64,000 bases of DNA from the NCBI GenBank assembly GCA_965242725.1, contig CBDESZ010000025.1, positions 380,774-444,773 of the forward strand, given 5' to 3'. The notes under the pieces were generated by a model. It did not search any database. It was not told the DNA's origin and saw nothing but the letters and a program-made list of their open reading frames with translations. Both the position numbers and the translations under genes were made by a program. Positions 1,914 to 13,627 of the stretch are shown here, in pieces (the stretch's first letter is position 1; every line of letters begins with the position of its first letter). The stretch is from Alkalispirochaeta sp. (lineage in GTDB: Bacteria; Spirochaetota; Spirochaetia; DSM-27196; Alkalispirochaetaceae).

Positions 1914-3884
1914 ATGGTTTCGATGGAGCAACTCCAGGGGTATATGAAGAAAGCGGCGCGGGCGGACAATGAGAAGAAATTTGTAAACGCCAGCGGGAAT
2001 ACCCTCGATGATGCGCTCCGTGAAGCCTCCGTGGAATTGGGCCTGGCCGTCAAGAAAATAGAATACGAAATTCTTGAAAAAGGATCGCCCGGATTTCTCG
2101 GCATAGGAAAACGTCCCTACCTGATCGTTGCCTATCCCCTCCAGGCGCAGCCGACCCTCGCCGGCAGTGATGATGTTGAAGATATGGACTTCGGTTTTGA
2201 ACCCTCCGAATCAGACGATCGTGACGGAGAGGCGATCGTACGTCTCACGCCGGAAGGGGTTATGCTGAAGATCACGCCTCCCAGAGGGGATGGTGAAGCG
2301 CTCACGGAGCGAGAGGCGATTCAGGCGATCGCCCACAGGACCAATGAAAAGATCGACGCCTCCATGGTCTCCAAGGCGGTCAAGCGTGCCGACGCCGTCT
2401 GGGTCAAGGTAGGGGAGTACGACTACAACCCCGCCAACGACGCCTTTGTTTCCTGTGAAATCGTCGAGAACGAAATGAAGGCGGTGGTGACACTCAGTCA
2501 GCCCGGTGAAGGCGGGTGTGACCCGACGGCGGATACGATCCGAACCGCCCTGGAAAACTCCGGTGTGGTTCACGGCATCATAGAAGACGTTCTCGCCTCC
2601 CTTGAGGACCATCCCGTATACCGTGAACCAATGGTTGTCGCCGAGGGAACCAAACCGATAAACGGCAATGATGCCCGGATCGTATATAACTTCAACACCG
2701 ATACGAAACACGTCCATATCGAGGAGTCCAAGGAAGGAAAGGTGGACTTCCGCGAACTGAATCGCATTGAAAACGTGGTTGAGGGACAGGTTCTCGCCCG
2801 GAAAGTCATGCCTGAGGAAGGTACTCCCGGACAGACGGTGACGGGCCGTCTCATACCGGCCAAGGACGGGAAGGATATCGAGCCTCCCGTCGGACCCAAT
2901 ACGCGTCTTTCCGACGACGGCCGCAGTATCATGGCTGAAATTAACGGTCTCGTGAAACTGGTGAACGGAAAGGTAACCGTAGAAAAGATTTACGTTGTCG
3001 AAGGCGACGTAAACATGAAGGAAGGGAACATTCGGTTTCTCGGCACCGTCATTATCAAGGGAAATGTGGATGACGGTTTCGGTGTCAACGCTGCGGGGGA
3101 TATCGAGGTCATGGGAAGTGTCGGCCGCAGCAATATGGAGGCCGAGGGCGATATCATCGTCCATCAGGGTATTGCCGGCAAGGGCGATGCTGCCGTGAAA
3201 GCGGGTGGTTCAATCTGGTCCAAGTTCATTGAAAATGCAAACGTAGAAGCCGGCGACATGGTCGTCGTTTCCGACGGTATCCTGAACAGCAATGTCTTCA
3301 CCGACAAACGAATCATCTGTCGCGGAAAGCGGGCCAGCATCGCCGGCGGACACGTTCGTGCCGCAGAAGAGATCGACACCAAGAACCTGGGCGCCCCCGC
3401 CGGTACGGAAACGCTCGTCGAAGTGGGGTACGATCCCAAGAGCAGGGAAAAACTGCTGGAACTTGAAAAGGCGGACCAGGAGCTTGAGAAGGAGCTTGAA
3501 GAACTGACCCTGAACATGTCTACCATTGAAAACATGCGGGTCAACAAGCGGAAGATCAGCCCGGAAAAACTCAAGCAATACGCCTCTATGAAAGCACAGC
3601 GGGCAAAGGTCACCAAACAACGACAGAAAATTTCCGGAGAGATCAAGACGATACAGACCTATCTTGATGAACTGAAGACCAACGGCCGGATCAGCGTATC
3701 CGGGACGGTATTTACCGGTGTGAAAGTGGCCGTCAAGGACGCGCAGCTACAGGTGCGTCGTGAAGCGCGCGCAGTGACATATCTGGCGGAACAGGGACAA
3801 GTCAAGGTCACGAAGTATGAAGAGAGCCGCGCCGACATTTCCGTGAAGAAACGGGAGACATCCGATGTCGCTTCAACCCATTGA
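1914..3884 (+). CDS. fapA: FapA/DUF342 flagellar assembly protein with N-terminal Jag_N-like domain
   Basis: N-terminal IEYEILEKGSPGFLGIG (Jag_N-like); VDFRELNRIENVVEGQVLA; beta-helix GNIRFLGTVIIKGNV; coiled coil. Confidence 0.85.
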   Translation: MVSMEQLQGYMKKAARADNEKKFVNASGNTLDDALREASVELGLAVKKIEYEILEKGSPGFLGIGKRPYLIVAYPLQAQPTLAGSDDVEDMDFGFEPSESDDRDGEAIVRLTPEGVMLKITPPRGDGEALTEREAIQAIAHRTNEKIDASMVSKAVKRADAVWVKVGEYDYNPANDAFVSCEIVENEMKAVVTLSQPGEGGCDPTADTIRTALENSGVVHGIIEDVLASLEDHPVYREPMVVAEGTKPINGNDARIVYNFNTDTKHVHIEESKEGKVDFRELNRIENVVEGQVLARKVMPEEGTPGQTVTGRLIPAKDGKDIEPPVGPNTRLSDDGRSIMAEINGLVKLVNGKVTVEKIYVVEGDVNMKEGNIRFLGTVIIKGNVDDGFGVNAAGDIEVMGSVGRSNMEAEGDIIVHQGIAGKGDAAVKAGGSIWSKFIENANVEAGDMVVVSDGILNSNVFTDKRIICRGKRASIAGGHVRAAEEIDTKNLGAPAGTETLVEVGYDPKSREKLLELEKADQELEKELEELTLNMSTIENMRVNKRKISPEKLKQYASMKAQRAKVTKQRQKISGEIKTIQTYLDELKTNGRISVSGTVFTGVKVAVKDAQLQVRREARAVTYLAEQGQVKVTKYEESRADISVKKRETSDVASTH

Positions 3885-4200
3885 TCTTCAGACGCTCTTT
3901 GTGCGCCTCAGCCAGGTCGGCCGGGAGCAGTCCGCAATCAAGCAGGCGGTTGCCCAGAACCAGACGGTCACCGGGAATGAAATCGCCCAGCGATCCCAGA
4001 ATGCGGGACATACAGTCCGGGAAACCGATGAAGTCTCGGAAGGTCCCGAGTCGGTCAATGAAGACGAACAGAAAGAAAACCCGAACAGCCGCGGCAGACG
4101 TTCGCCGTCGGGTGCGGAGGAGCAGAGTTCCGAAGAGGGCGACGAAAACGGAGAGTTCCGGGATCCCGACCTTGGTCAAAATGTCGATTTGACGGGGTAG
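3865..4200 (+). CDS. Hypothetical protein (MSLQPIDLQ... DPDLGQNVDLTG), typical companion downstream of fapA
   Basis: Overlaps fapA stop; conserved-looking N- and C-terminal motifs. Confidence 0.75.
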   Translation: MSLQPIDLQTLFVRLSQVGREQSAIKQAVAQNQTVTGNEIAQRSQNAGHTVRETDEVSEGPESVNEDEQKENPNSRGRRSPSGAEEQSSEEGDENGEFRDPDLGQNVDLTG

Positions 4201-4202
4201 CC

Positions 4203-4784
4203 ATGAATTTCGGTCTCTACCTTCTTCTCAACCTGCTCTTTTTATTTGCCTTGGCTCTCTGGCTCCGGACTCTCGTGGTGAAAAGACTTAAACCGGAGAC
4301 AATACTCGCCGATTTGGAAAGTGAAGTGAATACAATGATTCAGGACCTTAATGCGGCGGGTGATCAGAACGTCTCTCTTCTGGAAGACCGTATCGAGACG
4401 CTGCGGGAACTCATTCATCGTGCGGACCTGCAGATAGATGAGCTGGAGGAGAAGGTCCGGACACTGGAAACCCGGCACATCGAGCAGCACGTTGAGGTCG
4501 ACCGGGATGACGGAATCCAGGAATATCCCGCCGTGGAGACGCAGGAATCTTCCGAGGGTGACGTACACCCGCACCCTGTAGAACCATCGGTTGAGGAAGA
4601 AGCGCCCATCATCTTTCCGTTTCGGAGGGAATCTGCCGCGGAAGAGGCGGAAACACCACGACAGGCGGTCCTGCGGCTTCACGGGCAGGGCGTCTCAAGC
4701 GAACTCATAGCCTCCCGTACCGGCATCGCCATCGGTGAAGTGGAGTTGATCATCTCCCTGGGGAGCAGGCGTGTCCGGCAATGA
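4203..4784 (+). CDS. Hypothetical membrane-anchored coiled-coil protein with C-terminal HTH-like (DUF2802/DUF6115-like) motif
   Basis: N-terminal TM helix, coiled coil, LHGQGVSSELIASRTGIAIGEVELIISL. Confidence 0.7.
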   Translation: MNFGLYLLLNLLFLFALALWLRTLVVKRLKPETILADLESEVNTMIQDLNAAGDQNVSLLEDRIETLRELIHRADLQIDELEEKVRTLETRHIEQHVEVDRDDGIQEYPAVETQESSEGDVHPHPVEPSVEEEAPIIFPFRRESAAEEAETPRQAVLRLHGQGVSSELIASRTGIAIGEVELIISLGSRRVRQ

Positions 4785-6343
4785 CGGTGGCATTTGACCT
4801 CGGTACGGCAGTCATATCGGCGGCATTTTTCGACGGGTCGGCGATACGTATCATTACCGACGACGGCGGTGAACATTCCGGACCGGCATACTCACTGAAA
4901 GAAATCCTCGGTCGACGAACGACGCTTCTCTGCCGCGACGGGCAGCGCAGTCCTGAAGAGATCCTCGCCCATCGACTCCGTCGTCTCCGCCGCTCCGTTG
5001 AGGGGATGCTCGGACGTGAAGTACGACGGGCGGCACTCACCGTTCCCGCCCGTTTCGACGTGAACAGGCGTAATGCCGTCATTGAGGCGGCGCTCCTGGC
5101 GGGATTTGAACGGGCCGTTCTCCTTGATGAACCGATCGCCGCGGTGTATGCCCACGCCCGGTACGTCGAGCGGGGGTTCTTTGTCGTCTGCGATTTCGGC
5201 GCGGGCTCTCTTGACGTCACATGCGTGGAAAAGTCGGGAATGCACTTTGTCGTACACGCCGCGGGCGGGGACCGCAGAATAAGCGGAAGAGCGATTGACC
5301 GTGTTGTATCGGAATATCTTCTCCGAAATATCGGTGATATTTCCGGTCTCGAAGAGGAGCTCCGCCGCGCCGCAGAAGAGATAAAGGTGAAGCTGTCCGT
5401 TGAAGACGTCGCGTCGATTTCCGTTTCCGCAGTATACCGGTCCGGCGGGGAGAGCTCCGTGGACGTGACGATCAGCAGGGATGAATTTGAATCGCTTCTC
5501 GCACCATTCCTCGAGCGGATGGTGCGCCTCGTCGCAGATACGTTACAGGAAGCCCGGTGGAGCGGCGACGCTTCCTCTATCTTTATCCTCGCGGGTGGAA
5601 TGACTGCCGTCCCCGCAGTGGCGCATACACTGTGCAGCCATTTTCCCGTGGAACCCACCGCGGAGGCTACGCCCCGTGAGTGCGTCATACGTGGAGCCGC
5701 CCTCTTTGCGGCTCGTACAGGGGCGGAACGCCTCCCCAACCGTCGATTTCTGCCGGCAACGCTTGCCGTTGAATTGTCCGACGGTCGCTGTACTCCCCTT
5801 TTGCGAAGATATCGAACCCTTCCCGCTTCCGTGTCAGCATCCTTCACCACCGTGGCGGATGATCAGGCGGAGGCGGAAATACATCTGGTACAGGGCGATG
5901 CCGGGCGGGCCTCCGACAACCGGAGCCTCTGTCGTCTAACCCTCACGGGACTTCCCGGAGGTCCCCACGGATCGGTCCCGATTACGGTGGCCCTTCAGGT
6001 AGACGAGGATGGCGTCGTCACCGTTACAGCACACTACGGGCAGGGAAATCCGCGAGTTCAACGGACGGCGCACCTCGTCAACGGTCACCGTCGGGGACCG
6101 CTTGAAGGTGACCGGACATCGTATTTCCACTCCCTCATCCGAAGGGGCAGGGTGCTCTCGACAATCGCGGGAGGGATGCTGCGGCGGGAGATCTCCGAAA
6201 CGGTCGATTACCTGGCGGGCTGGAATACAGCGAATCCCTCTGAAATCGATAACGCCGTCACCGTCCTGGAGACCCTGGTGGAAGAGGTGATCGCCGAGCG
6301 TGACGTCCATGACGAGGGAGGAGCCGGTCGTGCAGCTTCGTGA
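4781..6343 (+). CDS. Divergent Hsp70-family protein (not canonical DnaK)
   Basis: AFDLGT, LTVPARF, DEPIAA, DFGAGSLD, LAGGMTAVP, SBD FTTVADDQ...QG...DNRSL; ATGA overlap with upstream gene. Confidence 0.9.
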   Translation: MTVAFDLGTAVISAAFFDGSAIRIITDDGGEHSGPAYSLKEILGRRTTLLCRDGQRSPEEILAHRLRRLRRSVEGMLGREVRRAALTVPARFDVNRRNAVIEAALLAGFERAVLLDEPIAAVYAHARYVERGFFVVCDFGAGSLDVTCVEKSGMHFVVHAAGGDRRISGRAIDRVVSEYLLRNIGDISGLEEELRRAAEEIKVKLSVEDVASISVSAVYRSGGESSVDVTISRDEFESLLAPFLERMVRLVADTLQEARWSGDASSIFILAGGMTAVPAVAHTLCSHFPVEPTAEATPRECVIRGAALFAARTGAERLPNRRFLPATLAVELSDGRCTPLLRRYRTLPASVSASFTTVADDQAEAEIHLVQGDAGRASDNRSLCRLTLTGLPGGPHGSVPITVALQVDEDGVVTVTAHYGQGNPRVQRTAHLVNGHRRGPLEGDRTSYFHSLIRRGRVLSTIAGGMLRREISETVDYLAGWNTANPSEIDNAVTVLETLVEEVIAERDVHDEGGAGRAAS

Positions 6344-6980
6344 GGCATACGGTATCCTTGGCGTATCGGCCCATCATGGGGTCACGGAAATACGGATGCG
6401 ATATCGCCGGCTGGTCAAGGAGTATCACCCCGACGTCACCCACCGACAGGGCGACACACTGGCGCGTATCATCGAGGCGTACCGGATCGTCGAATCCGCA
6501 ACGGCCGGTTCCCGCCCGCGGAAGACAAGGGGTGCTACCGGAGGCAGGAAAGAACGCTCTTCCCCGCCGCGCGGCCATTCCGCTGCGCCGGCGGAAGGGG
6601 GCGGCGGGGACAGCGCGCGCCTTGTTTTTCAATTGGGTGGAGTGGCGATGTCGGGGAAGGGCGGCGCCCACAGATGCGACGCCTTGCGACGACTGGTGCA
6701 CACGGGATCGCGAAGCGCGGCCGTATTTGTGCGCCAGTGTCTTTTTGACGCGGACAAGGAGGTCCGGCATGAGGCTGCACGACTCATACCGTTGGTTCCG
6801 GGAGAGCGACGGGAGTCGATGCTCATAGAAGTGGTCGATCGTCTGACGTCACAGCAATGTGTCGCGATGCTGAAGACAATCGGAAGGTATAAGTTGCCCT
6901 ATCGCCGATTTGTCGGATATGCCGCCGCGGATTCCCGCGCGTCGGTGCGTAACGCCGCCCTGGAGGTTCTGCGTGGTTGA
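6330..6980 (+). CDS. J-domain protein (HPD) with C-terminal HEAT-like repeats
   Basis: AYGILGV...YRRLVKEYHPD...IIEAY; LFDADKEVRHEAA and AADSRASVRNAAL; GTG with GGAGG at 6317-6321. Confidence 0.85.
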   Translation: MQLREAYGILGVSAHHGVTEIRMRYRRLVKEYHPDVTHRQGDTLARIIEAYRIVESATAGSRPRKTRGATGGRKERSSPPRGHSAAPAEGGGGDSARLVFQLGGVAMSGKGGAHRCDALRRLVHTGSRSAAVFVRQCLFDADKEVRHEAARLIPLVPGERRESMLIEVVDRLTSQQCVAMLKTIGRYKLPYRRFVGYAAADSRASVRNAALEVLRG

Positions 6981-8583
6981 GCTTGAATCGTTTGTGGAGC
7001 AGTTGGAACGGTACTTCCTCGAGGGGGGCGGTGACCCTGTCCGTCTCCGGGGCCGACTGAAAGACCTCCGTGCCTCGGCAGAAAAATCCGAAAACGAGGG
7101 GCTGGTGGCGGTCCTTGAACAGCTGGAACGCCATATGTACGGTGGGGGCTCACCGGTCGCAGAAGAACTGATGCCGATCATCTTCACCCTCCGCTCGATC
7201 GTGAAAGAGACAACGGGTGATCAATCGGATGGTGATTATGTACGAATTGAAACGCCGGGGAGGAAATCCCTTTTTACCTCCCTTTCCCCATACCATCGTG
7301 ACCTCCTGCGCAGTGCCCGTGAACGGGGAGAGCGACTTTACCAGTTGTCCGTGAATACTCCCGGATCGTGTCGCGGGCCGGTCATCGAGGCGATAGAACG
7401 GTCCTGTGCGGTTATACAATCCGATGATTCCGACGATTCCGGGACGTTGCAGTTTCTGATTGTGTCATCGGAAGCGCCTGAACCGGATGACCTGTTGCGC
7501 GGAAATCTCCACGCACCCTGTCACACCGTTGAGTGCAGAATGCGGCACGTTTCATTCGAAGAAGTCATTGAGGCATCGCCCGTATCGATGCAGTGGTATG
7601 GCGGTGCGCCGGAACTGCCCGTCGGTTCATCAATTGACCGGATTGAACGAACCCTTATCCTCCTCAATGAACTCCGACGATCCCCTGATGAAGGAATGGA
7701 CGGGATCATCGGGGAAATCGCCGACGGGACTACGGATGCACTGTCGTCCACGGTAGAGAGAGTATGCGAGCATTTCTTCCCGCATATCCGCACGCTTGGC
7801 CATGAACTGGGCAAGCGGGTTTCCATACGGGTATCCGGTGACGTCGGCCGCCTTTCCATTGTACACGCCGAGATGGTGGGTGCCGCCCTCAGGGAGCTGC
7901 TTGAAAATGCGATCCGGCACGGCATCGAGCCCGGGGAGGAGCGTCTCCGCCGGGGGAAACAGCGTACGGGTAATATCCGCATCGAGGTGACGGAGTACGC
8001 CCATTCCATGGGACTGCGTATACGCGACGATGGAAAGGGCGTTGCCCAGGAGGAACTTGCAGCTGCCTTTGACCGCGCCGGACGGCACGGACTTGGATGG
8101 GTACGGCGTATTGTTGAGGAATACTTCGGTGGACGGCTCACCATTCGCGCCGGCGGCGGGACTACCGCCGAGCTCGAAATTCCCCGCGGCGACGGAATGT
8201 TTCGCGCCCGGCCATTGCGGCGCCGGGGAGAAACCTTCGTCGTCCCCGTTGCAGTGTCCTCTGAAAATATCGTCCTGAAAAACGCTGAACGTTCAACCGA
8301 AATGTCGGGGGGCATCCATATTCACGGCGGAGAGCGAGGAGTGCTGCCGCTCATGGATATCGGGGAAGACGGCACCCTTCGTTCCTGTAATTCCGCCGCA
8401 AATGATGCCATGTACGCCGTGGCGGTCACGGCCGGATCCACCGCCCGGGCTGTCGTCGCCGACGAGATCGGTCGTGAGGTCATGGCGGTTCCCCTTGTGG
8501 GAGAACCCTTTACCGTCCGCCTCGGATTGCGGGATGAATATGCCCGGGTAATTCCGTTGACCTCCACCCGAAGGAACACATAA
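6973..8583 (+). CDS. Degenerate CheA-like protein (HPt-like, P2-like, HATPase, CheW-like)
   Basis: LLENAIRHGIEPGEERLRRGK..GNIRI...IRDDGKG is CheA-specific; HPt His is absent; GTG with GGAGG at 6962-6966. Confidence 0.8.
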   Translation: MVELESFVEQLERYFLEGGGDPVRLRGRLKDLRASAEKSENEGLVAVLEQLERHMYGGGSPVAEELMPIIFTLRSIVKETTGDQSDGDYVRIETPGRKSLFTSLSPYHRDLLRSARERGERLYQLSVNTPGSCRGPVIEAIERSCAVIQSDDSDDSGTLQFLIVSSEAPEPDDLLRGNLHAPCHTVECRMRHVSFEEVIEASPVSMQWYGGAPELPVGSSIDRIERTLILLNELRRSPDEGMDGIIGEIADGTTDALSSTVERVCEHFFPHIRTLGHELGKRVSIRVSGDVGRLSIVHAEMVGAALRELLENAIRHGIEPGEERLRRGKQRTGNIRIEVTEYAHSMGLRIRDDGKGVAQEELAAAFDRAGRHGLGWVRRIVEEYFGGRLTIRAGGGTTAELEIPRGDGMFRARPLRRRGETFVVPVAVSSENIVLKNAERSTEMSGGIHIHGGERGVLPLMDIGEDGTLRSCNSAANDAMYAVAVTAGSTARAVVADEIGREVMAVPLVGEPFTVRLGLRDEYARVIPLTSTRRNT

Positions 8584-8722: not shown

Positions 8723-10552
8723 TTAGCGCGCCGCGTCGGTAAGTCTGGAAAGGAAGGTGATATGGTAGCGGCACGATTCTTCGAGTGCCGAGTAGATGCG
8801 GTATGACTGGGATATGGATTCCTCGATCGTTGCCGGTCGATAACGCATCTCCTGCTCCAGCACGTCGTTTGCGAGAAACCCGACAACGTCACGATAGACC
8901 GCTCCGGTAAGCCGCGCGTCTATCGCGTCTAAGTCGGACGGATCGTCCTGACGCGATTGCAGCAAACGGCGACATACCGTGGTCCCATCATGTACCACCG
9001 TCTCGATATCCCGTATGATTGCAGTCAACTCGACGAGCGTTTCCGTCGCACTTTCACCCGCAGCCGGAGCGTTCCCCTGGAGACCGATAGGCGGAACGGT
9101 CGGCGGGTGCGGACCGTCCCCAGCCTCCGCCGTGAGGCGCTGTATACGTGAAACAGGATCCTCATGGGAAATGCCTTCAATGGCGGAGCCCCGTGGAGAG
9201 AGCACACTTGTATGCACCTCGGGGAACCGACGATTCTGCTCGGCAAACCATGAGCGATAGACGTCCATCCGGCCGTCGCTCAGGACGTCCCCGCCCTTCA
9301 GATCCGGCACATACCGCGGTGACGCCCCGTGGAGGTATCGCGACATGCCGTGTTCCGCAGGATGGAGCCGGTCCGCATTCCGGCGCAGGAGATTCTCAAA
9401 AAAGGAATCGCGGCAATGTGTCTGATTGTCCGGGAAGGCGAGATCCACACCCGCCATGGCGATATCCCGGGATCCGACGATCCGCGCAAGGTCCCACGCC
9501 GAGGTGGCAACGGATCCGCCCGCTCCCAGTTTCAGGTTTCGGTCAAAACGCCGGTCAAAAAAGGAGCCAAGGGGAAAGAGAGACGCCGACATCGAGACGG
9601 GGCCGTCATAGAGCCTGAGAATTCTCGGATGAACGGCCGGCTCGGCCACGAGTACCGTCGGCGACGGTGCAACGCGGTCAAAGTGGCGGCTGTTCCAGTA
9701 CTGCGGATCTGAAACGACGGCGAAGTGTGCGGTGACACCCAGGCGCTGTAACACCGGAATGGCGGTGTCCACGGCGATGATAAGATTGTGTGCGGCCAGT
9801 GCAGGGATGTAGGGGAGGATGTCGTCCAGAGTTGGACCGGCGCCACATACGACGGCGGGGAGGCGGGGAAAGCGATTCTCCAGCTCATCGATACCGCCCG
9901 TCGCGTGGCCGAAGACCGTGTTTCGTATCGTATTGCGTACCCACAGGCGTCCGAATCGCCGCAGGGTGTTGCGATTCACCGACGCCCGTTCCCGCATGGA
10001 ATGGAGCCGCTGGATCACCAGGGAATACCATTCCGCCGCGACCTCCTCAAAAGCTTCCAGGGCGATAACTCGCGGGTTGTAAATCTCAAGCTCCCGGAGC
10101 AGGACCGGCAGGACACCGCCCACCCAGGCGGGTACGATCCTGTCGGGCCCGAACTCCTTCCACCATGGGATAGAACGTGTCGCAAGAACCGTACTCACGA
10201 TGTGGGCGGAAAACGTTACGGCCACCACAGTGGTGCATTGATCCGCGGATGCGCGGCGCAGAGCCTCGATGTGATAGCCCATCCCCAGACCGACGCAGAC
10301 GTGTCCATCTGCGTGTTCGGTCACCTCCCGCGCCGCACGCCGCGCGGCTTCCCGGGACGGATCAAAGCGACTGTGGACAAATCGGGAACCGACCCTGAGG
10401 GTGAGCTGGCCGTTTCGCGCCGGCAGAAATTCGCATCGGGAAGAGTCAATTCCCCGCTCTGTTTCGTCGGAAAGGATTGCACGAAGATCCTGCGCAAGGG
10501 CCGGACGATCTTCCGCGATGGCGTCGATCACCGCCGAGAGGTCGCCGGTCAT
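8723..10552 (-). CDS. Motility-associated factor (Maf)/DUF115 glycosyltransferase-family protein
   Basis: HSRFDPSREA, GLGMGY, CGAGPTL, AVDTA, SDPQ, GGSVATSAWDLA, GVDLAF...THC. Confidence 0.85.
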   Translation of the reverse strand: MTGDLSAVIDAIAEDRPALAQDLRAILSDETERGIDSSRCEFLPARNGQLTLRVGSRFVHSRFDPSREAARRAAREVTEHADGHVCVGLGMGYHIEALRRASADQCTTVVAVTFSAHIVSTVLATRSIPWWKEFGPDRIVPAWVGGVLPVLLRELEIYNPRVIALEAFEEVAAEWYSLVIQRLHSMRERASVNRNTLRRFGRLWVRNTIRNTVFGHATGGIDELENRFPRLPAVVCGAGPTLDDILPYIPALAAHNLIIAVDTAIPVLQRLGVTAHFAVVSDPQYWNSRHFDRVAPSPTVLVAEPAVHPRILRLYDGPVSMSASLFPLGSFFDRRFDRNLKLGAGGSVATSAWDLARIVGSRDIAMAGVDLAFPDNQTHCRDSFFENLLRRNADRLHPAEHGMSRYLHGASPRYVPDLKGGDVLSDGRMDVYRSWFAEQNRRFPEVHTSVLSPRGSAIEGISHEDPVSRIQRLTAEAGDGPHPPTVPPIGLQGNAPAAGESATETLVELTAIIRDIETVVHDGTTVCRRLLQSRQDDPSDLDAIDARLTGAVYRDVVGFLANDVLEQEMRYRPATIEESISQSYRIYSALEESCRYHITFLSRLTDAAR

Positions 10553-12435
10553 TCAAGCTCCAGGGTAACGGTCATGCCCGGCTCAAAGGGAGTACCCGGC
10601 GGCGGATCCTGCGCGGCGACCCATCCGCTTCCCGACACCTTCACGGTGATGTCCTCCCTGTTCATGAGGGGAAGAATGGTTCGTGCCGAGAGTCCGCGAT
10701 AGTCGGGAAGGACCTCCCCGATGGGCGGCAACTCCCTGGAGTTTACGACAACCCTGCCGGGATGGCGCACGACGGTGTCGCTTTCCCGGGGAATGTTCCA
10801 GTAGGGCACGAGAAACTCAATGAGACGATCCGTGGCGGGGGCGGCTATACGTCCACCCAGATACTCCGGACCGCGTGGGTGATCGATAACGAGATATATG
10901 AGCAGTTCCGGCTGTTCCGCCGGAAACAGCGCCAGCGTGGAGGCGATAAAGTGTTCATCCGAGTATTCACCGGATACGGGGTCAAAGACTTCGGCGGTAC
11001 CCGTCTTGGCGGCCACCGTCACCCCTTCCACATTGATGCGCCGCGCAGTACCACCCGGTTCCGTTGAACTGCTCATGAGTTCGAGCATGGTTGCTGCGGT
11101 CTGGGGGGCGAGTACCTCCCGCACCGGCTCGCGTTCAAACCGGCGGATTACCTCGCCGGTGGGGGAGACGATGCGGTCCACGATCTGCGGACGCAGCAGC
11201 ATCCCGTCATTGGCCAGGGTGGATGCCGCGGCAACCATTTGTATTGCCGTCACGCCGATTTCCTGTCCAATGGCGATCGTCGGCCGTGAACGGGCGGACC
11301 AGTTCTCCGGTCGATTAAGGAGGCCTCGTTCCTCCCCGTTCAGGTCGATTCCGGTGGTCTCTCCGAATCCGAACTTCCGCAGCATCGCGTAGAAGGCGCC
11401 GGGGTCCACCGTTTCCGACGCGTAGGCTGCGCCGACGTTGCTTGAGTACTTGATGATCTCTTCCGCATTGATTCGACCGTAGTCCGCAAGATCGCGGATG
11501 ACGAACGCGCCGTCGTCGGAGCGATATCCGCCGGTGGTGTTGAAGGTGTCGTCCGGTTCAATGCCGCCGAGGTCAAGTATGCCGGCAACGGAAAAAACCT
11601 TGAAGACGCTGCCCGGTTCATAGATGTGCGAAATGAGACGGTTGCGCCGTCGTTCCGCGTCATAGGAGCGGAACGAGTTTGGATCGAAGGAGGGGCGCGC
11701 AGACATTGCAAGAAGATCCGCCGTTGTTGCGTCGGCGACGATGATCATGACCGAGTCTGCGTTGTAGGTCTGAAGCAGTTCGTCACCCAGCTCATCGGCA
11801 AAACTCTGGATTGCGAGATCAAGGGTAAGAAATACCTGATTGCCCATGACGATTTCACCGTCCCTGGGTTCGATATTTTCGACGCTCGGCTGGAGCTCCC
11901 CGGAGAACATGTATTCGATCCCTTCCAGTCCGATATCATCAACGCCGACGTAGCCGATGACGCTCGCCGCAGCTTCCCGTTCGGGATAACTTCGTCCGAA
12001 ATCCTCCTGGAGGGTAATGCCGTCGAGATTGCCCTGCTGAAACTCCCGCCGAATCGCATCGCTCTGACTGGGGGTAATCGTCCGCTGGACGATGAGAAAG
12101 TCCCGGGACGTACTGAACCGTTCATGCAGCTCTTCCCGCGGGACCTGGAGTATTTCAGCGAGGATGGTAATCGTAGAATCCATTTCGGAGACGTCGGGCT
12201 TCCAGGCGGTAACGGTATCGAGACGCGTTTGAATCGCCAGGATACGCCCGCGCCGATCCAGAATGGGACCACGTTCCACCTCGGGGGACGGAATGGGTGG
12301 TGCCGTCCGTTCTTCAACCAGCATCACCGCGGCGTAGCGGAAAAAAAGAAAAAAGGCGACTCCGAAAATGATGAAACCGAAGATACTCAGTCGACGTACT
12401 CGTTTTTCCGACGTATTTACTGAGGGAAAAGACAC
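10549..12435 (-). CDS. ftsI: Class B penicillin-binding protein (FtsI/PBP3-like) with C-terminal PASTA domain
   Basis: RGPILDRRG, GLEGIE, EPGSVFK (SxxK), SSN, KTGTA. Confidence 0.9.
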   Translation of the reverse strand: MSFPSVNTSEKRVRRLSIFGFIIFGVAFFLFFRYAAVMLVEERTAPPIPSPEVERGPILDRRGRILAIQTRLDTVTAWKPDVSEMDSTITILAEILQVPREELHERFSTSRDFLIVQRTITPSQSDAIRREFQQGNLDGITLQEDFGRSYPEREAAASVIGYVGVDDIGLEGIEYMFSGELQPSVENIEPRDGEIVMGNQVFLTLDLAIQSFADELGDELLQTYNADSVMIIVADATTADLLAMSARPSFDPNSFRSYDAERRRNRLISHIYEPGSVFKVFSVAGILDLGGIEPDDTFNTTGGYRSDDGAFVIRDLADYGRINAEEIIKYSSNVGAAYASETVDPGAFYAMLRKFGFGETTGIDLNGEERGLLNRPENWSARSRPTIAIGQEIGVTAIQMVAAASTLANDGMLLRPQIVDRIVSPTGEVIRRFEREPVREVLAPQTAATMLELMSSSTEPGGTARRINVEGVTVAAKTGTAEVFDPVSGEYSDEHFIASTLALFPAEQPELLIYLVIDHPRGPEYLGGRIAAPATDRLIEFLVPYWNIPRESDTVVRHPGRVVVNSRELPPIGEVLPDYRGLSARTILPLMNREDITVKVSGSGWVAAQDPPPGTPFEPGMTVTLELE

Positions 12436-12481
12436 AACGCACTATAATATGCTCCATTTTTCTTGTCGATACTGGGAGCAT

Positions 12482-13627
12482 ATGGTCAGCGTGATTGAGC
12501 ACCAAAAGGTCGCCCGCCGGCGCCGTCCCACCGGGACGGGGCGTACACCCCGGAAGTTGCGGGGAATCCAACCTATTCGAATTGCACGGAAATCCGGTGC
12601 TCCGGCAGTGAAGAGCGCACGAAAGAACGTACCGGTGCGGTTCTTTGCGACCCCCCACGGTATTTCAATCGATCTTCCTCGGGCGGATTATCCCGTCCTC
12701 GCCGCCGTCATCGTCTTCGCAATATTCGCAAACCTCATGCTCCTCTCCTTTCGATCCGATCGGATCATCCTTTCGGGAGTTCTGTCGGGAATCGCCCCGC
12801 CTCCCGCGCAGGAGCTGGTCATGCAGTCGCGCATTACCCCGCAGGAGAATGAGTTTGCCGTCATCGGGGAAGTGGCAGGAGTGGACCCCTCCCGTTTTGC
12901 ACGCCTGGAGGTGGAGACCTATACCGTCCGGCCGGGAGATACGCTCGGCGAAATCGCGCTCCGCTACGGGCTGGAAATGGACACCCTCATCAGTTTCAAC
13001 CAGATCGAGGATGTTCGACGTCTTCAGGCGGGAACGACGATGGAGGTTCCCAATCGGGACGGACTGCTCTACACCGTCAAGGGTGGGGATTCCCTCTCCT
13101 CCATAGCGGGCCGCCACGAAACGACGGTCAATGCGATTCTTGACGCCAATGACATGAAGAGTCAGGTGATCGATGTGGGACAGGTCATCTTCGTTCCCGG
13201 TGCGCGCCTGAACGACACGGAGCGCCGGATCATTCTGGGAGAACTCTTTGCGTGGCCGGCGAGGGGAACCTTTACCAGCGGGTTCGGTATGCGGGCGGAT
13301 CCCTTTACCGGATATCCCCGCTTTCACAACGGCGTCGATATGGCAAGCCGCATAGGGACGCCGATTCGGGCCGCCGCTTCAGGCAGGGTTGTCCATATAG
13401 AGACGCAGGTCGGGAACTACGGTCGATTTGTCATTCTGCGACACCCCGACGGGTTCCAGACGCTCTACGCCCACATGGACTCCTTTTCCGTGCGGAACGG
13501 ACAGTACGTCGACCGCGGCACCATCATCGGATCGATGGGAAACACCGGCCGAAGCACCGGTCCGCACCTGCACTTTTCAGTCATACACAACGGTACATTC
13601 GTTGACCCGTTGCGTTATCTTCATTGA
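12482..13627 (+). CDS. LysM x2 plus M23 peptidase (peptidoglycan endopeptidase)
   Basis: YTVRPGDTLGEIA, YTVKGGDSLSSIA, HNGVD, YAH, STGPHLHF; start uncertain. Confidence 0.9.
   Translation: MVSVIEHQKVARRRRPTGTGRTPRKLRGIQPIRIARKSGAPAVKSARKNVPVRFFATPHGISIDLPRADYPVLAAVIVFAIFANLMLLSFRSDRIILSGVLSGIAPPPAQELVMQSRITPQENEFAVIGEVAGVDPSRFARLEVETYTVRPGDTLGEIALRYGLEMDTLISFNQIEDVRRLQAGTTMEVPNRDGLLYTVKGGDSLSSIAGRHETTVNAILDANDMKSQVIDVGQVIFVPGARLNDTERRIILGELFAWPARGTFTSGFGMRADPFTGYPRFHNGVDMASRIGTPIRAAASGRVVHIETQVGNYGRFVILRHPDGFQTLYAHMDSFSVRNGQYVDRGTIIGSMGNTGRSTGPHLHFSVIHNGTFVDPLRYLH

Follow-up and report, generated by a model that had tools for sequence, protein, structure and literature searches.

Do an Hsp70, a J-domain protein and a CheA-like protein that are encoded in a row at the end of a flagellar operon work together, or do they only lie together? 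The question is raised by a stretch of 64,000 nucleotides (nt) of Alkalispirochaeta sp. (GenBank assembly GCA_965242725.1, contig CBDESZ010000025.1, positions 380,774 to 444,773; hereafter the window). Three consecutive genes on its plus strand encode a degenerate Hsp70 paralogue (nt 4781–6343), a J-domain co-chaperone with HEAT repeats, J/HEAT (nt 6330–6980), and a derivative of the chemotaxis kinase CheA that lacks the His and the ATP lid (nt 6973–8583). A preliminary description of the window proposed that the three form one dedicated chaperone system, with the CheA derivative as its client or scaffold. Our analysis inclines, by a modest degree, to a different answer: the flagellar superoperon ends in two separately inherited things, an old Hsp70 and J/HEAT pair that is likely a private chaperone for motility or chemotaxis, and a likely relic of a CheA. 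The locus is a pair plus a passenger, not a three-part machine.

The Hsp70 and J/HEAT pair

All three open reading frames (ORFs) were confirmed, and each begins within the gene before it, with overlaps of 4, 14 and 8 nt, respectively. The Hsp70 has 520 residues and matches Pfam HSP70 (E 2.7e-63, 214.6 bits vs a cut-off of 20.6), the J/HEAT protein has 216 residues and matches Pfam DnaJ above the cut-off (E 1.1e-8), and the CheA derivative has 536 residues, with a HATPase_c match (E 1.6e-12) and CheA as its best NCBIfam matches. All three score far under the DnaK, HscA, DnaJ and CheA cut-offs. The genes before them are, in order, the end of flhG, an FlgV-like gene, fliA, fapA, a YjfB-like gene and a gene for a protein with a transmembrane segment and a helix-turn-helix (TM+HTH; DUF6115). 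The accessible text of PMC11607428 lists FlgV, sigma-28, FapA, YjfB and TM+HTH in the flagellar superoperon in matching positions. No grpE or dnaJ was found in the neighbourhood of the trio, and the canonical dnaK sits on another contig. The gene layout and the lack of a grpE or heat-shock context given in the preliminary description hold up, and the overlaps are conserved in relatives. At other sites the genome encodes the canonical dnaK locus and three full CheAs. Contigs from two public runs of one sample, possibly the source sample and so not independent, show zero differences across the trio genes; an assembly error as the source of the odd Hsp70 was rejected on this identity.

We surveyed 75 loci from 74 relatives in the same order, collected around fapA or the CheA-like gene. 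Nine were uninformative (four lacked the anchor gene and five were cut short). The other 66 comprise 46 with the trio, 18 with the CheA-like gene alone, one with a J remnant plus the CheA-like gene, and one with none detected, which holds a split, very divergent CheA-like ORF. The presence of Hsp70 and that of J/HEAT are concordant in 65 of the 66. The synteny behind fapA expected for the trio is therefore found at 46 loci, after the TM+HTH gene, but the CheA-like gene separates from the pair. CheA-only loci come from five families; one of these families has no other kind (11 of 11), and a congener of the window genome (G008) also belongs to this class. Whole-genome searches of three CheA-only genomes found no operon-type Hsp70.

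The junctions are tight within the order: Hsp70 runs into the start of the J gene at 41 of 45 loci, and no more than 20 nt separate TM+HTH from Hsp70 at 44 of 48. The ratio of nonsynonymous to synonymous substitution rates (dN/dS) in two close pairs was 0.07 and 0.07 for Hsp70, 0.11 and 0.29 for J/HEAT, and 0.11 and 0.22 for the His-less CheA. The check on dN/dS suggested with the preliminary description thus returned purifying selection, not values near 1.

The operon Hsp70s form a subfamily. A tree of 83 proteins, drawn without an outgroup from other phyla, separates its 61 operon Hsp70s from its 22 DnaKs with a Shimodaira–Hasegawa-like approximate likelihood ratio test (SH-aLRT) support of 100. 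Each of ten distant genomes tested has a canonical DnaK besides the second Hsp70, and so does every genome with the pair that was searched for one. Four ATPase motifs are present in all 59 relatives and the fifth in 58. The equivalents of DnaK T11, K70, E171 and D194, which we take to be the catalytic residues and mapped via a spirochaete DnaK, are kept in the window copy and in each of the 59 relatives; at T199 the window has serine. A 22-residue deletion in lobe I is common to all 59, and the class-level copies (n = 47) are 553–602 residues long. These class-level copies lack the hydrophobic linker and roughly half of a lid segment, which argues for specialisation; a VLLLD-type linker pattern was found in only 8 of the 59 relatives. 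Membership of the DnaK equivalogs was rejected, with 206–211 bits for the window protein vs cut-offs of 648 and 822, and 405–547 bits for order-level relatives.

In the window J/HEAT protein, the J domain is encoded at about nt 6336–6491, with the HPD motif at 6426–6434, and the HEAT region at about 6618–6977. Of 48 J proteins from the order, 47 carry HPD, and the one that does not comes from a split gene. The C-terminal part of these proteins matches HEAT/alphaRep repeats; HEAT_2 is weak in the window protein (E 0.015) and strong in relatives (E 1e-6 to 3e-13). The layout is that of a class C J-domain protein, an HPD J domain with no G/F region, zinc finger or DnaJ C-terminal domains. In eukaryotic Fes1 a HEAT domain acts as an exchange factor, and a parallel with J/HEAT was considered. 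We infer that the Hsp70 and J/HEAT are cognate to each other because they are co-inherited, overlap and have diverged from DnaK.

Outside the order, 100 loci were anchored on the YjfB-like gene, taken from 123 relatives with a match after thinning of one large family. The pair is present at 11 of them, in seven families, and neither gene is present at 81, in 27 families; the remaining 8 are short. A profile search, which scored at most seven candidates per genome and may have missed some, found full-length J/HEAT in 46 of 401 sampled genomes, in 19 families. Hsp70 lies directly upstream of J/HEAT in 35 of 39 cases inspected, the exceptions being one genome of family f32 and three of f46. The upstream gene was visible for 30 pairs and is TM+HTH in 20. 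Downstream of the pair stand cheW-cheR-cheA or cheW-cheA in families f39, f45 and f32, cheW-cheR, one unassigned gene and cheD in f25 and f36, the CheA derivative in the window's order and in f57, and unrelated genes in other families. At least nine families have the pair without any adjacent CheA. Since flhA is found in nearly all sampled genomes (392 of 401, and 46 of 46 with J/HEAT), co-occurrence of the pair with flagella is uninformative.

The J/HEAT clusters of the ESM Atlas are mostly from Spirochaetota where taxa are known. Genome contigs were also scanned for exact motifs, an approach unable to demonstrate absence beyond the phylum. Of the 41 loci retrieved, 34 are operon copies from spirochaetes, some of them from the collection already surveyed and hence not independent of it, and 7 are ordinary dnaK loci or unrelated long Hsp70 genes. 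A profile search of 1.84 billion representatives was dominated by long HEAT-repeat proteins and gave no information on range. The pair is a real, conserved and uncharacterised variant of the specialised Hsp70/J kind, and it defines an Hsp70 subfamily that spans the phylum, has a J/HEAT partner of its own and has its place in a motility operon.

Several related arrangements were seen on the way. Family f46 has a short J/HEAT-like gene of 184 codons with no adjacent Hsp70 (L277:6059-6613, L279:5141-5692, L278:6037-6588), which lies beside an opposite-strand flagellin gene in two genomes and diverges from weak YjfB/TM+HTH matches in the third. In genome G104 (L227:8-2748), a second Hsp70 of 493 residues follows a gene with a methyl-accepting chemotaxis protein signal domain, with no J/HEAT alongside. 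Several distant families (L117, L122, L174 and kin) have TM+HTH followed directly by cheR-cheD-yicC, a further sign that chemotaxis genes once closed this operon. Tandem long Hsp70-like genes (864–1261 aa) at L311 and L331, from a metagenome-assembled Chthoniobacteraceae genome and an unclassified bacterium, are unrelated to the module.

Decay of the window Hsp70

The Hsp70 of the window is a degenerate outlier of its subfamily, a point that the preliminary description does not make. It retains 61 of 96 family-invariant residues (35 are changed), vs 82–96 in the 59 relatives. There is an extra 28-residue deletion in lobe I after residue 36, the phosphate and adenosine loops are altered, the lid is short and the linker reads LPNRRF. 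None of the five patterns phosphate-1, TPS, EPTAA, phosphate-2 and adenosine is matched (58–59 of 59 relatives match each), and the equivalents of DnaK R167 and D393 are missing. Its terminal branch in the 83-protein tree is 1.92, vs 0.29–0.45 for the closest relatives. Relative-rate tests gave 125 vs 40, 133 vs 39 and 110 vs 48 changes (chi-square 24–51), compared with a chi-square of 0–5.4 for the window J/HEAT and flanking genes. The window Hsp70 evolves about three times faster than its relatives. The CheA-like protein is accelerated as well (71 vs 41 lineage-specific changes), and J/HEAT is not (12 vs 8). Synonymous change is saturated on the window branch, and therefore no branch dN/dS is given. 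A single-sequence structure model of the protein was unusable, with a predicted local distance difference test score (pLDDT) of 40.

The long branch, the high relative rate, the changed invariant residues and the deletion could all be those of an early pseudogene, in a trio that has no joint function now. The congener G008, already without both Hsp70 and J/HEAT, fits the same course. Such a reading concerns the window copy only and is compatible with a pair plus a passenger, but several features speak against it and leave it rather doubtful. The frame of 520 codons and both overlaps are intact. Invariant sites are retained more often than variable sites (60 of 88 vs 36 of 80, Fisher p 0.003), the four presumed catalytic residues are in place, and the J/HEAT partner has kept both its rate and its HPD motif. 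The retained invariant residues lean towards the substrate-binding domain, though not significantly (19 of 24 vs 42 of 72, p 0.09). Constraint on the window Hsp70 is relaxed, not gone, and the protein is probably poorly coupled to its own J partner.

Client of the pair and related systems

What would such a pair serve? Our best guess, a little firmer than even, is that its client would be a cytoplasmic motility or chemotaxis protein. Three things favour this: where the pair stands in the operon, the cheW-cheR-cheA genes that adjoin it in distant lineages, and the finding that in E. coli both CheA and FliN depend on DnaJ/HtpG, being HtpG clients with a dependence on DnaJ/CbpA (PMC3708813). The likeliest single client in the ancestor would be the chemosensory kinase complex, and not as an obligate one. 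In the usual Hsp70 cycle, class C J proteins bind a client through the second domain and set off hydrolysis in the partner Hsp70. By this scheme, the HEAT repeats would bind the client, and the J domain, through its HPD motif, would prompt the neighbouring Hsp70 to hydrolyse ATP. The client would be held and released while a polar motility complex is assembled.

HscA and HscB are alike in principle: this Hsp70 and its class C J protein are encoded together, and the second domain of HscB carries the client. However, the window Hsp70 falls below the HscA cut-offs (198 vs 708 bits), and its subfamily keeps the GrpE signature, with a loop of 9–12 residues vs 11 in DnaK that is not deleted; HscA membership was rejected. 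No iron–sulphur cluster genes were found among the annotated neighbours of the Hsp70 loci, and HEAT repeats replace the helical domain of HscB. E. coli HscC, which acts with DjlB/DjlC, is closer in outline. As given in the accessible part of PMC8215388, it is a specialised Hsp70 of 550–580 residues that has a deletion in lobe I and works with a J protein of its own. The class-level copies are of about this length, and the operon Hsp70s share the deletion at DnaK 76–101 (22 residues, 59 of 59), a deletion that, by the same source, is also frequent in non-proteobacterial DnaK. Membership of HscC was rejected, as all 59 lack both the L1,2 insertion of 4–8 residues and the D211-loop deletion, and the GrpE loop is not absent; it is nearly full length, and shortened (by 5 residues) in three copies only. 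The soluble J/HEAT partner and the flagellar context differ from HscC too.

Hsp70 paralogues have been tied to motility or a chemosensory-like pathway in Myxococcus (StkA) and Synechococcus (DnaK1), as far as the accessible parts of PMC4319316 and PMC13710413 go. Unlike the present pair, these belong to type IV pilus systems and not to periplasmic flagella, and no J/HEAT partner is described in those parts. Specialised bacterial Hsp70s other than HscA and HscC have seen little study and have been called unexplored (PMC13580251). No description of the pair or the trio was found in the literature searched, to which most subscription papers and the figures of PMC11607428 do not belong. A term search of several Hsp70 and J-domain protein papers gave no mention of spirochaetes or Borrelia, and six supplements of PMC11607428 contain no HSP70, DnaJ or CheA string.

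The preliminary description had pointed to an extra Hsp70 at the same position in Borrelia, and this is borne out by bb0264. In the accessible text of PMC11607428, bb0264 of B. burgdorferi is the last of 31 superoperon genes, co-transcribed with bb0272-bb0264; like the subfamily, it is an extra Hsp70, encoded at the end of the flgB superoperon, where fapA and two small genes precede it. It is listed as dnaK-1, at 278565-277090, in the accessible part of PMC3485029. There the gene is non-essential, and one tested transposon mutant was positive at both time points in 7 of 15 sites and marked as of intermediate or equivocal infectivity. Among the literature searched, no motility function of BB0264 is in print. 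Three small multi-replicon genomes carry a 503-residue Hsp70 alone at the superoperon end, which nests within the operon subfamily in the tree. These copies fit the BB0264 family, an identity that rests on position and length. An M23 peptidase gene also lies two genes beyond the lone Hsp70 in these genomes. BB0264-type proteins differ from the window locus in their length of about 490–503 residues, cut lid, shortened GrpE loop, and lack of a J/HEAT or CheA-like neighbour. A private motility chaperone would offer a testable role for bb0264, of which transposon mutants exist.

Several results weigh against the reading of an old pair that serves motility. Outside the order, 81 of 92 informative YjfB-anchored loci lack the pair; as nearly all sampled genomes have flhA, motility does not need it. 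Ten of the 30 pairs with a visible upstream gene, in four families, lie intact among non-flagellar housekeeping genes. The two partners can part, with J/HEAT but no neighbouring Hsp70 in three f46 genomes and the 503-residue Hsp70 without J/HEAT in the three small genomes. Distant Hsp70 copies retain the DnaK linker and GrpE loop, and the lid is also intact; two of them exceed one DnaK cut-off (PRK00290 only). The relocation, the DnaK-like distant copies and the absence from most flagellated spirochaetes would suit a second general or stress DnaK/J system, for which the operon place is historical inertia or co-expression without a motility client. We regard this as unlikely. The pair stays directly behind the same flagellar gene across the phylum, with the tight junction seen in the order, the losses in the linker and lid of class-level copies point to specialisation, and the J helper has none of the further domains of a generalist DnaJ. 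Of the dedicated chaperone system first proposed, what is supported is a conserved Hsp70 and J/HEAT pair that differs from DnaK, with genes that share their orientation, overlap and lie where the flagellar superoperon reaches its 3′ end; a single unit of all three is not supported.

The CheA derivative and the genes around the trio

The CheA derivative of the window consists of what appear to be remnants of the P1-P2-P3-P4-P5 layout, with an N box (ELLENAIRHG, about nt 7894–7923) and a G1 box (DDGKG, nt 8026–8040). It is a full-length match to the profile of the His-bearing family (E 6e-69). In nine other families every CheA-like copy (39 of 39) has the Hpt site HSx[KR]S[EQ], usually accompanied by the N, G1 and G2 boxes, and four of six rows of a tenth family also carry the Hpt His. 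As the preliminary description had observed for the window, the His is missing; it is absent, together with the G2 box, from the window and 19 of 19 informative copies of its family. The ATP lid (F and G2 boxes) is deleted in the window and in all 17 aligned copies of two genera.

Pfam detects Hpt, P2 and HATPase in His-bearing copies. The P3 dimerisation and P5 CheW-like domains have no Pfam match in the window or seven relatives, and the GATILGDG hairpin is replaced. An AlphaFold model of one His-bearing relative (pLDDT 81, predicted template-modelling score 0.66) has all five domain folds, with CheA structures as best matches; its helical hairpin and beta-rich C-terminal domain align with CheA P3-P5. 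Among 17 His-less copies the P4 pocket is most conserved, with 27 near-invariant columns of 143 vs 2–8 in other domains, and dN is well under dS in four close pairs wherever dS is measurable.

Where did this gene come from? The Hpt signature HS[IV]KSE[AS]A is present in 7 of 9 full operon-site CheAs of distant families, and the other two have near-variants; other CheAs, where the motif was read, carry H[ST][IL]KG instead. Because the HS[IV]KSE signature and the operon site are common to the variant and the full operon CheAs, the CheA-like gene is likely what remains of a cheW-cheR-cheA cassette that the operon formerly encoded right behind the pair. The CheA tree groups variant and operon CheAs apart from other CheAs at a support of 94; it has long branches, no bootstrap and no secure root. 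In most of the order, the derivative is predicted to be an active but receptor-uncoupled kinase. In the window's family, the conserved P4 pocket, the deleted lid and dN below dS fit a pseudokinase that is predicted to bind nucleotide without phosphorylating and to be retained by selection.

Derivatives that also lack the N and G1 boxes, yet are full length, occur in two more genera of this family (L039:6770-8563, L040:340-2133, L038:4227-5735), and this loss is a further decay step. A CheA is seen to decay stepwise under selection: partners lost, then P3/P5 divergence, then loss of His and lid. The steps make a natural series for non-catalytic CheA function. Degenerate CheAs of the Rhodobacter CheA3 type are a precedent for a retained non-functional kinase and for His-less Hpt domains (PMC10782961). 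The present derivative appears to share the P1-P2-P3-P4-P5 layout of a CheA with P2, but unlike those degenerate CheAs it has a single Hpt, P3/P5 domains under Pfam detection and no cheW/cheY neighbour, and His and ATP lid were lost together in one family with the nucleotide pocket still conserved. New here are the shared Hpt signature that links the kinase to the ancestral cassette, the family-specific loss of His and lid under selection, and the measured decay of the window Hsp70.

A broader history may be drawn, to which we give a low probability. An ancestral spirochaete Hsp70 and J/HEAT chaperone would have served the building of the polar chemosensory or flagellar machinery, with Borrelia dnaK-1 as its remnant; in the order it would serve the receptor-uncoupled CheA, which in one family would be a selected ATP-binding pseudokinase scaffold.

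The weakest reading is the single machine of the preliminary description, in which the HEAT repeats bind the CheA derivative as client or scaffold of the Hsp70: in its favour, all 46 informative order loci with the pair have the CheA-like gene directly behind (overlapping the J stop in 32 of 41), Hsp70 and CheA-like protein are both accelerated in the window, and E. coli CheA is a chaperone client (PMC3708813, accessible part), but the CheA-like gene is kept without the pair at 18 of 66 loci, no operon-type Hsp70 was found in whole-genome searches of three such genomes, the pair occurs without an adjacent CheA in many families, His is missing only in the window's family, and J/HEAT did not accelerate with the other two, so that we hold it to be quite improbable.

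After the end of flhG, the plus-strand genes before the trio start with that of a two-TM, FlgV-like protein of 258 residues (nt 316–1092), named by its place after flhG and its layout, with no family match. They continue with fliA (sigma-28 type, nt 1124–1912), assigned by Pfam Sigma70 r2/r3/r4 and position, and fapA (nt 1914–3884), with Pfam FapA, FapA_N and Jag_N. The YjfB-like small protein of 111 residues (nt 3865–4200), the anchor of the phylum survey, was named by position, and so was the TM+HTH protein (nt 4203–4784; Pfam DUF6115), following the accessible text of PMC11607428. For the latter, SpiroCoCo_C and the collar protein FlbB gave weak matches that score far under the cut-offs. 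Promoter and terminator counts are at chance level (2 vs 1.9 and 5 vs 4.3). Behind the trio, a convergent Maf-type flagellin-modification gene on the minus strand (nt 8723–10552; Pfam MptE-like, weak Maf_flag10_N and PseD) closes the plus-strand run and lies outside the module. This gene and a penicillin-binding protein gene on the minus strand, with a LysM/M23 peptidase gene on the plus strand (nt 8723–13627 in all), trail the operon in many relatives across the order.

The canonical dnaK and dnaJ of the genome (contig C8, 18006–21300) are broken by frameshifts. These are assembly insertions, because a run contig spanning the same stretch lacks the 17 single bases in question. Two other places also appear frameshifted, probably by the same assembly errors: C25:373287-375648, from fliY/fliN to flhB directly upstream of the window, and C18:154845-156674, a cheW after a cheA.

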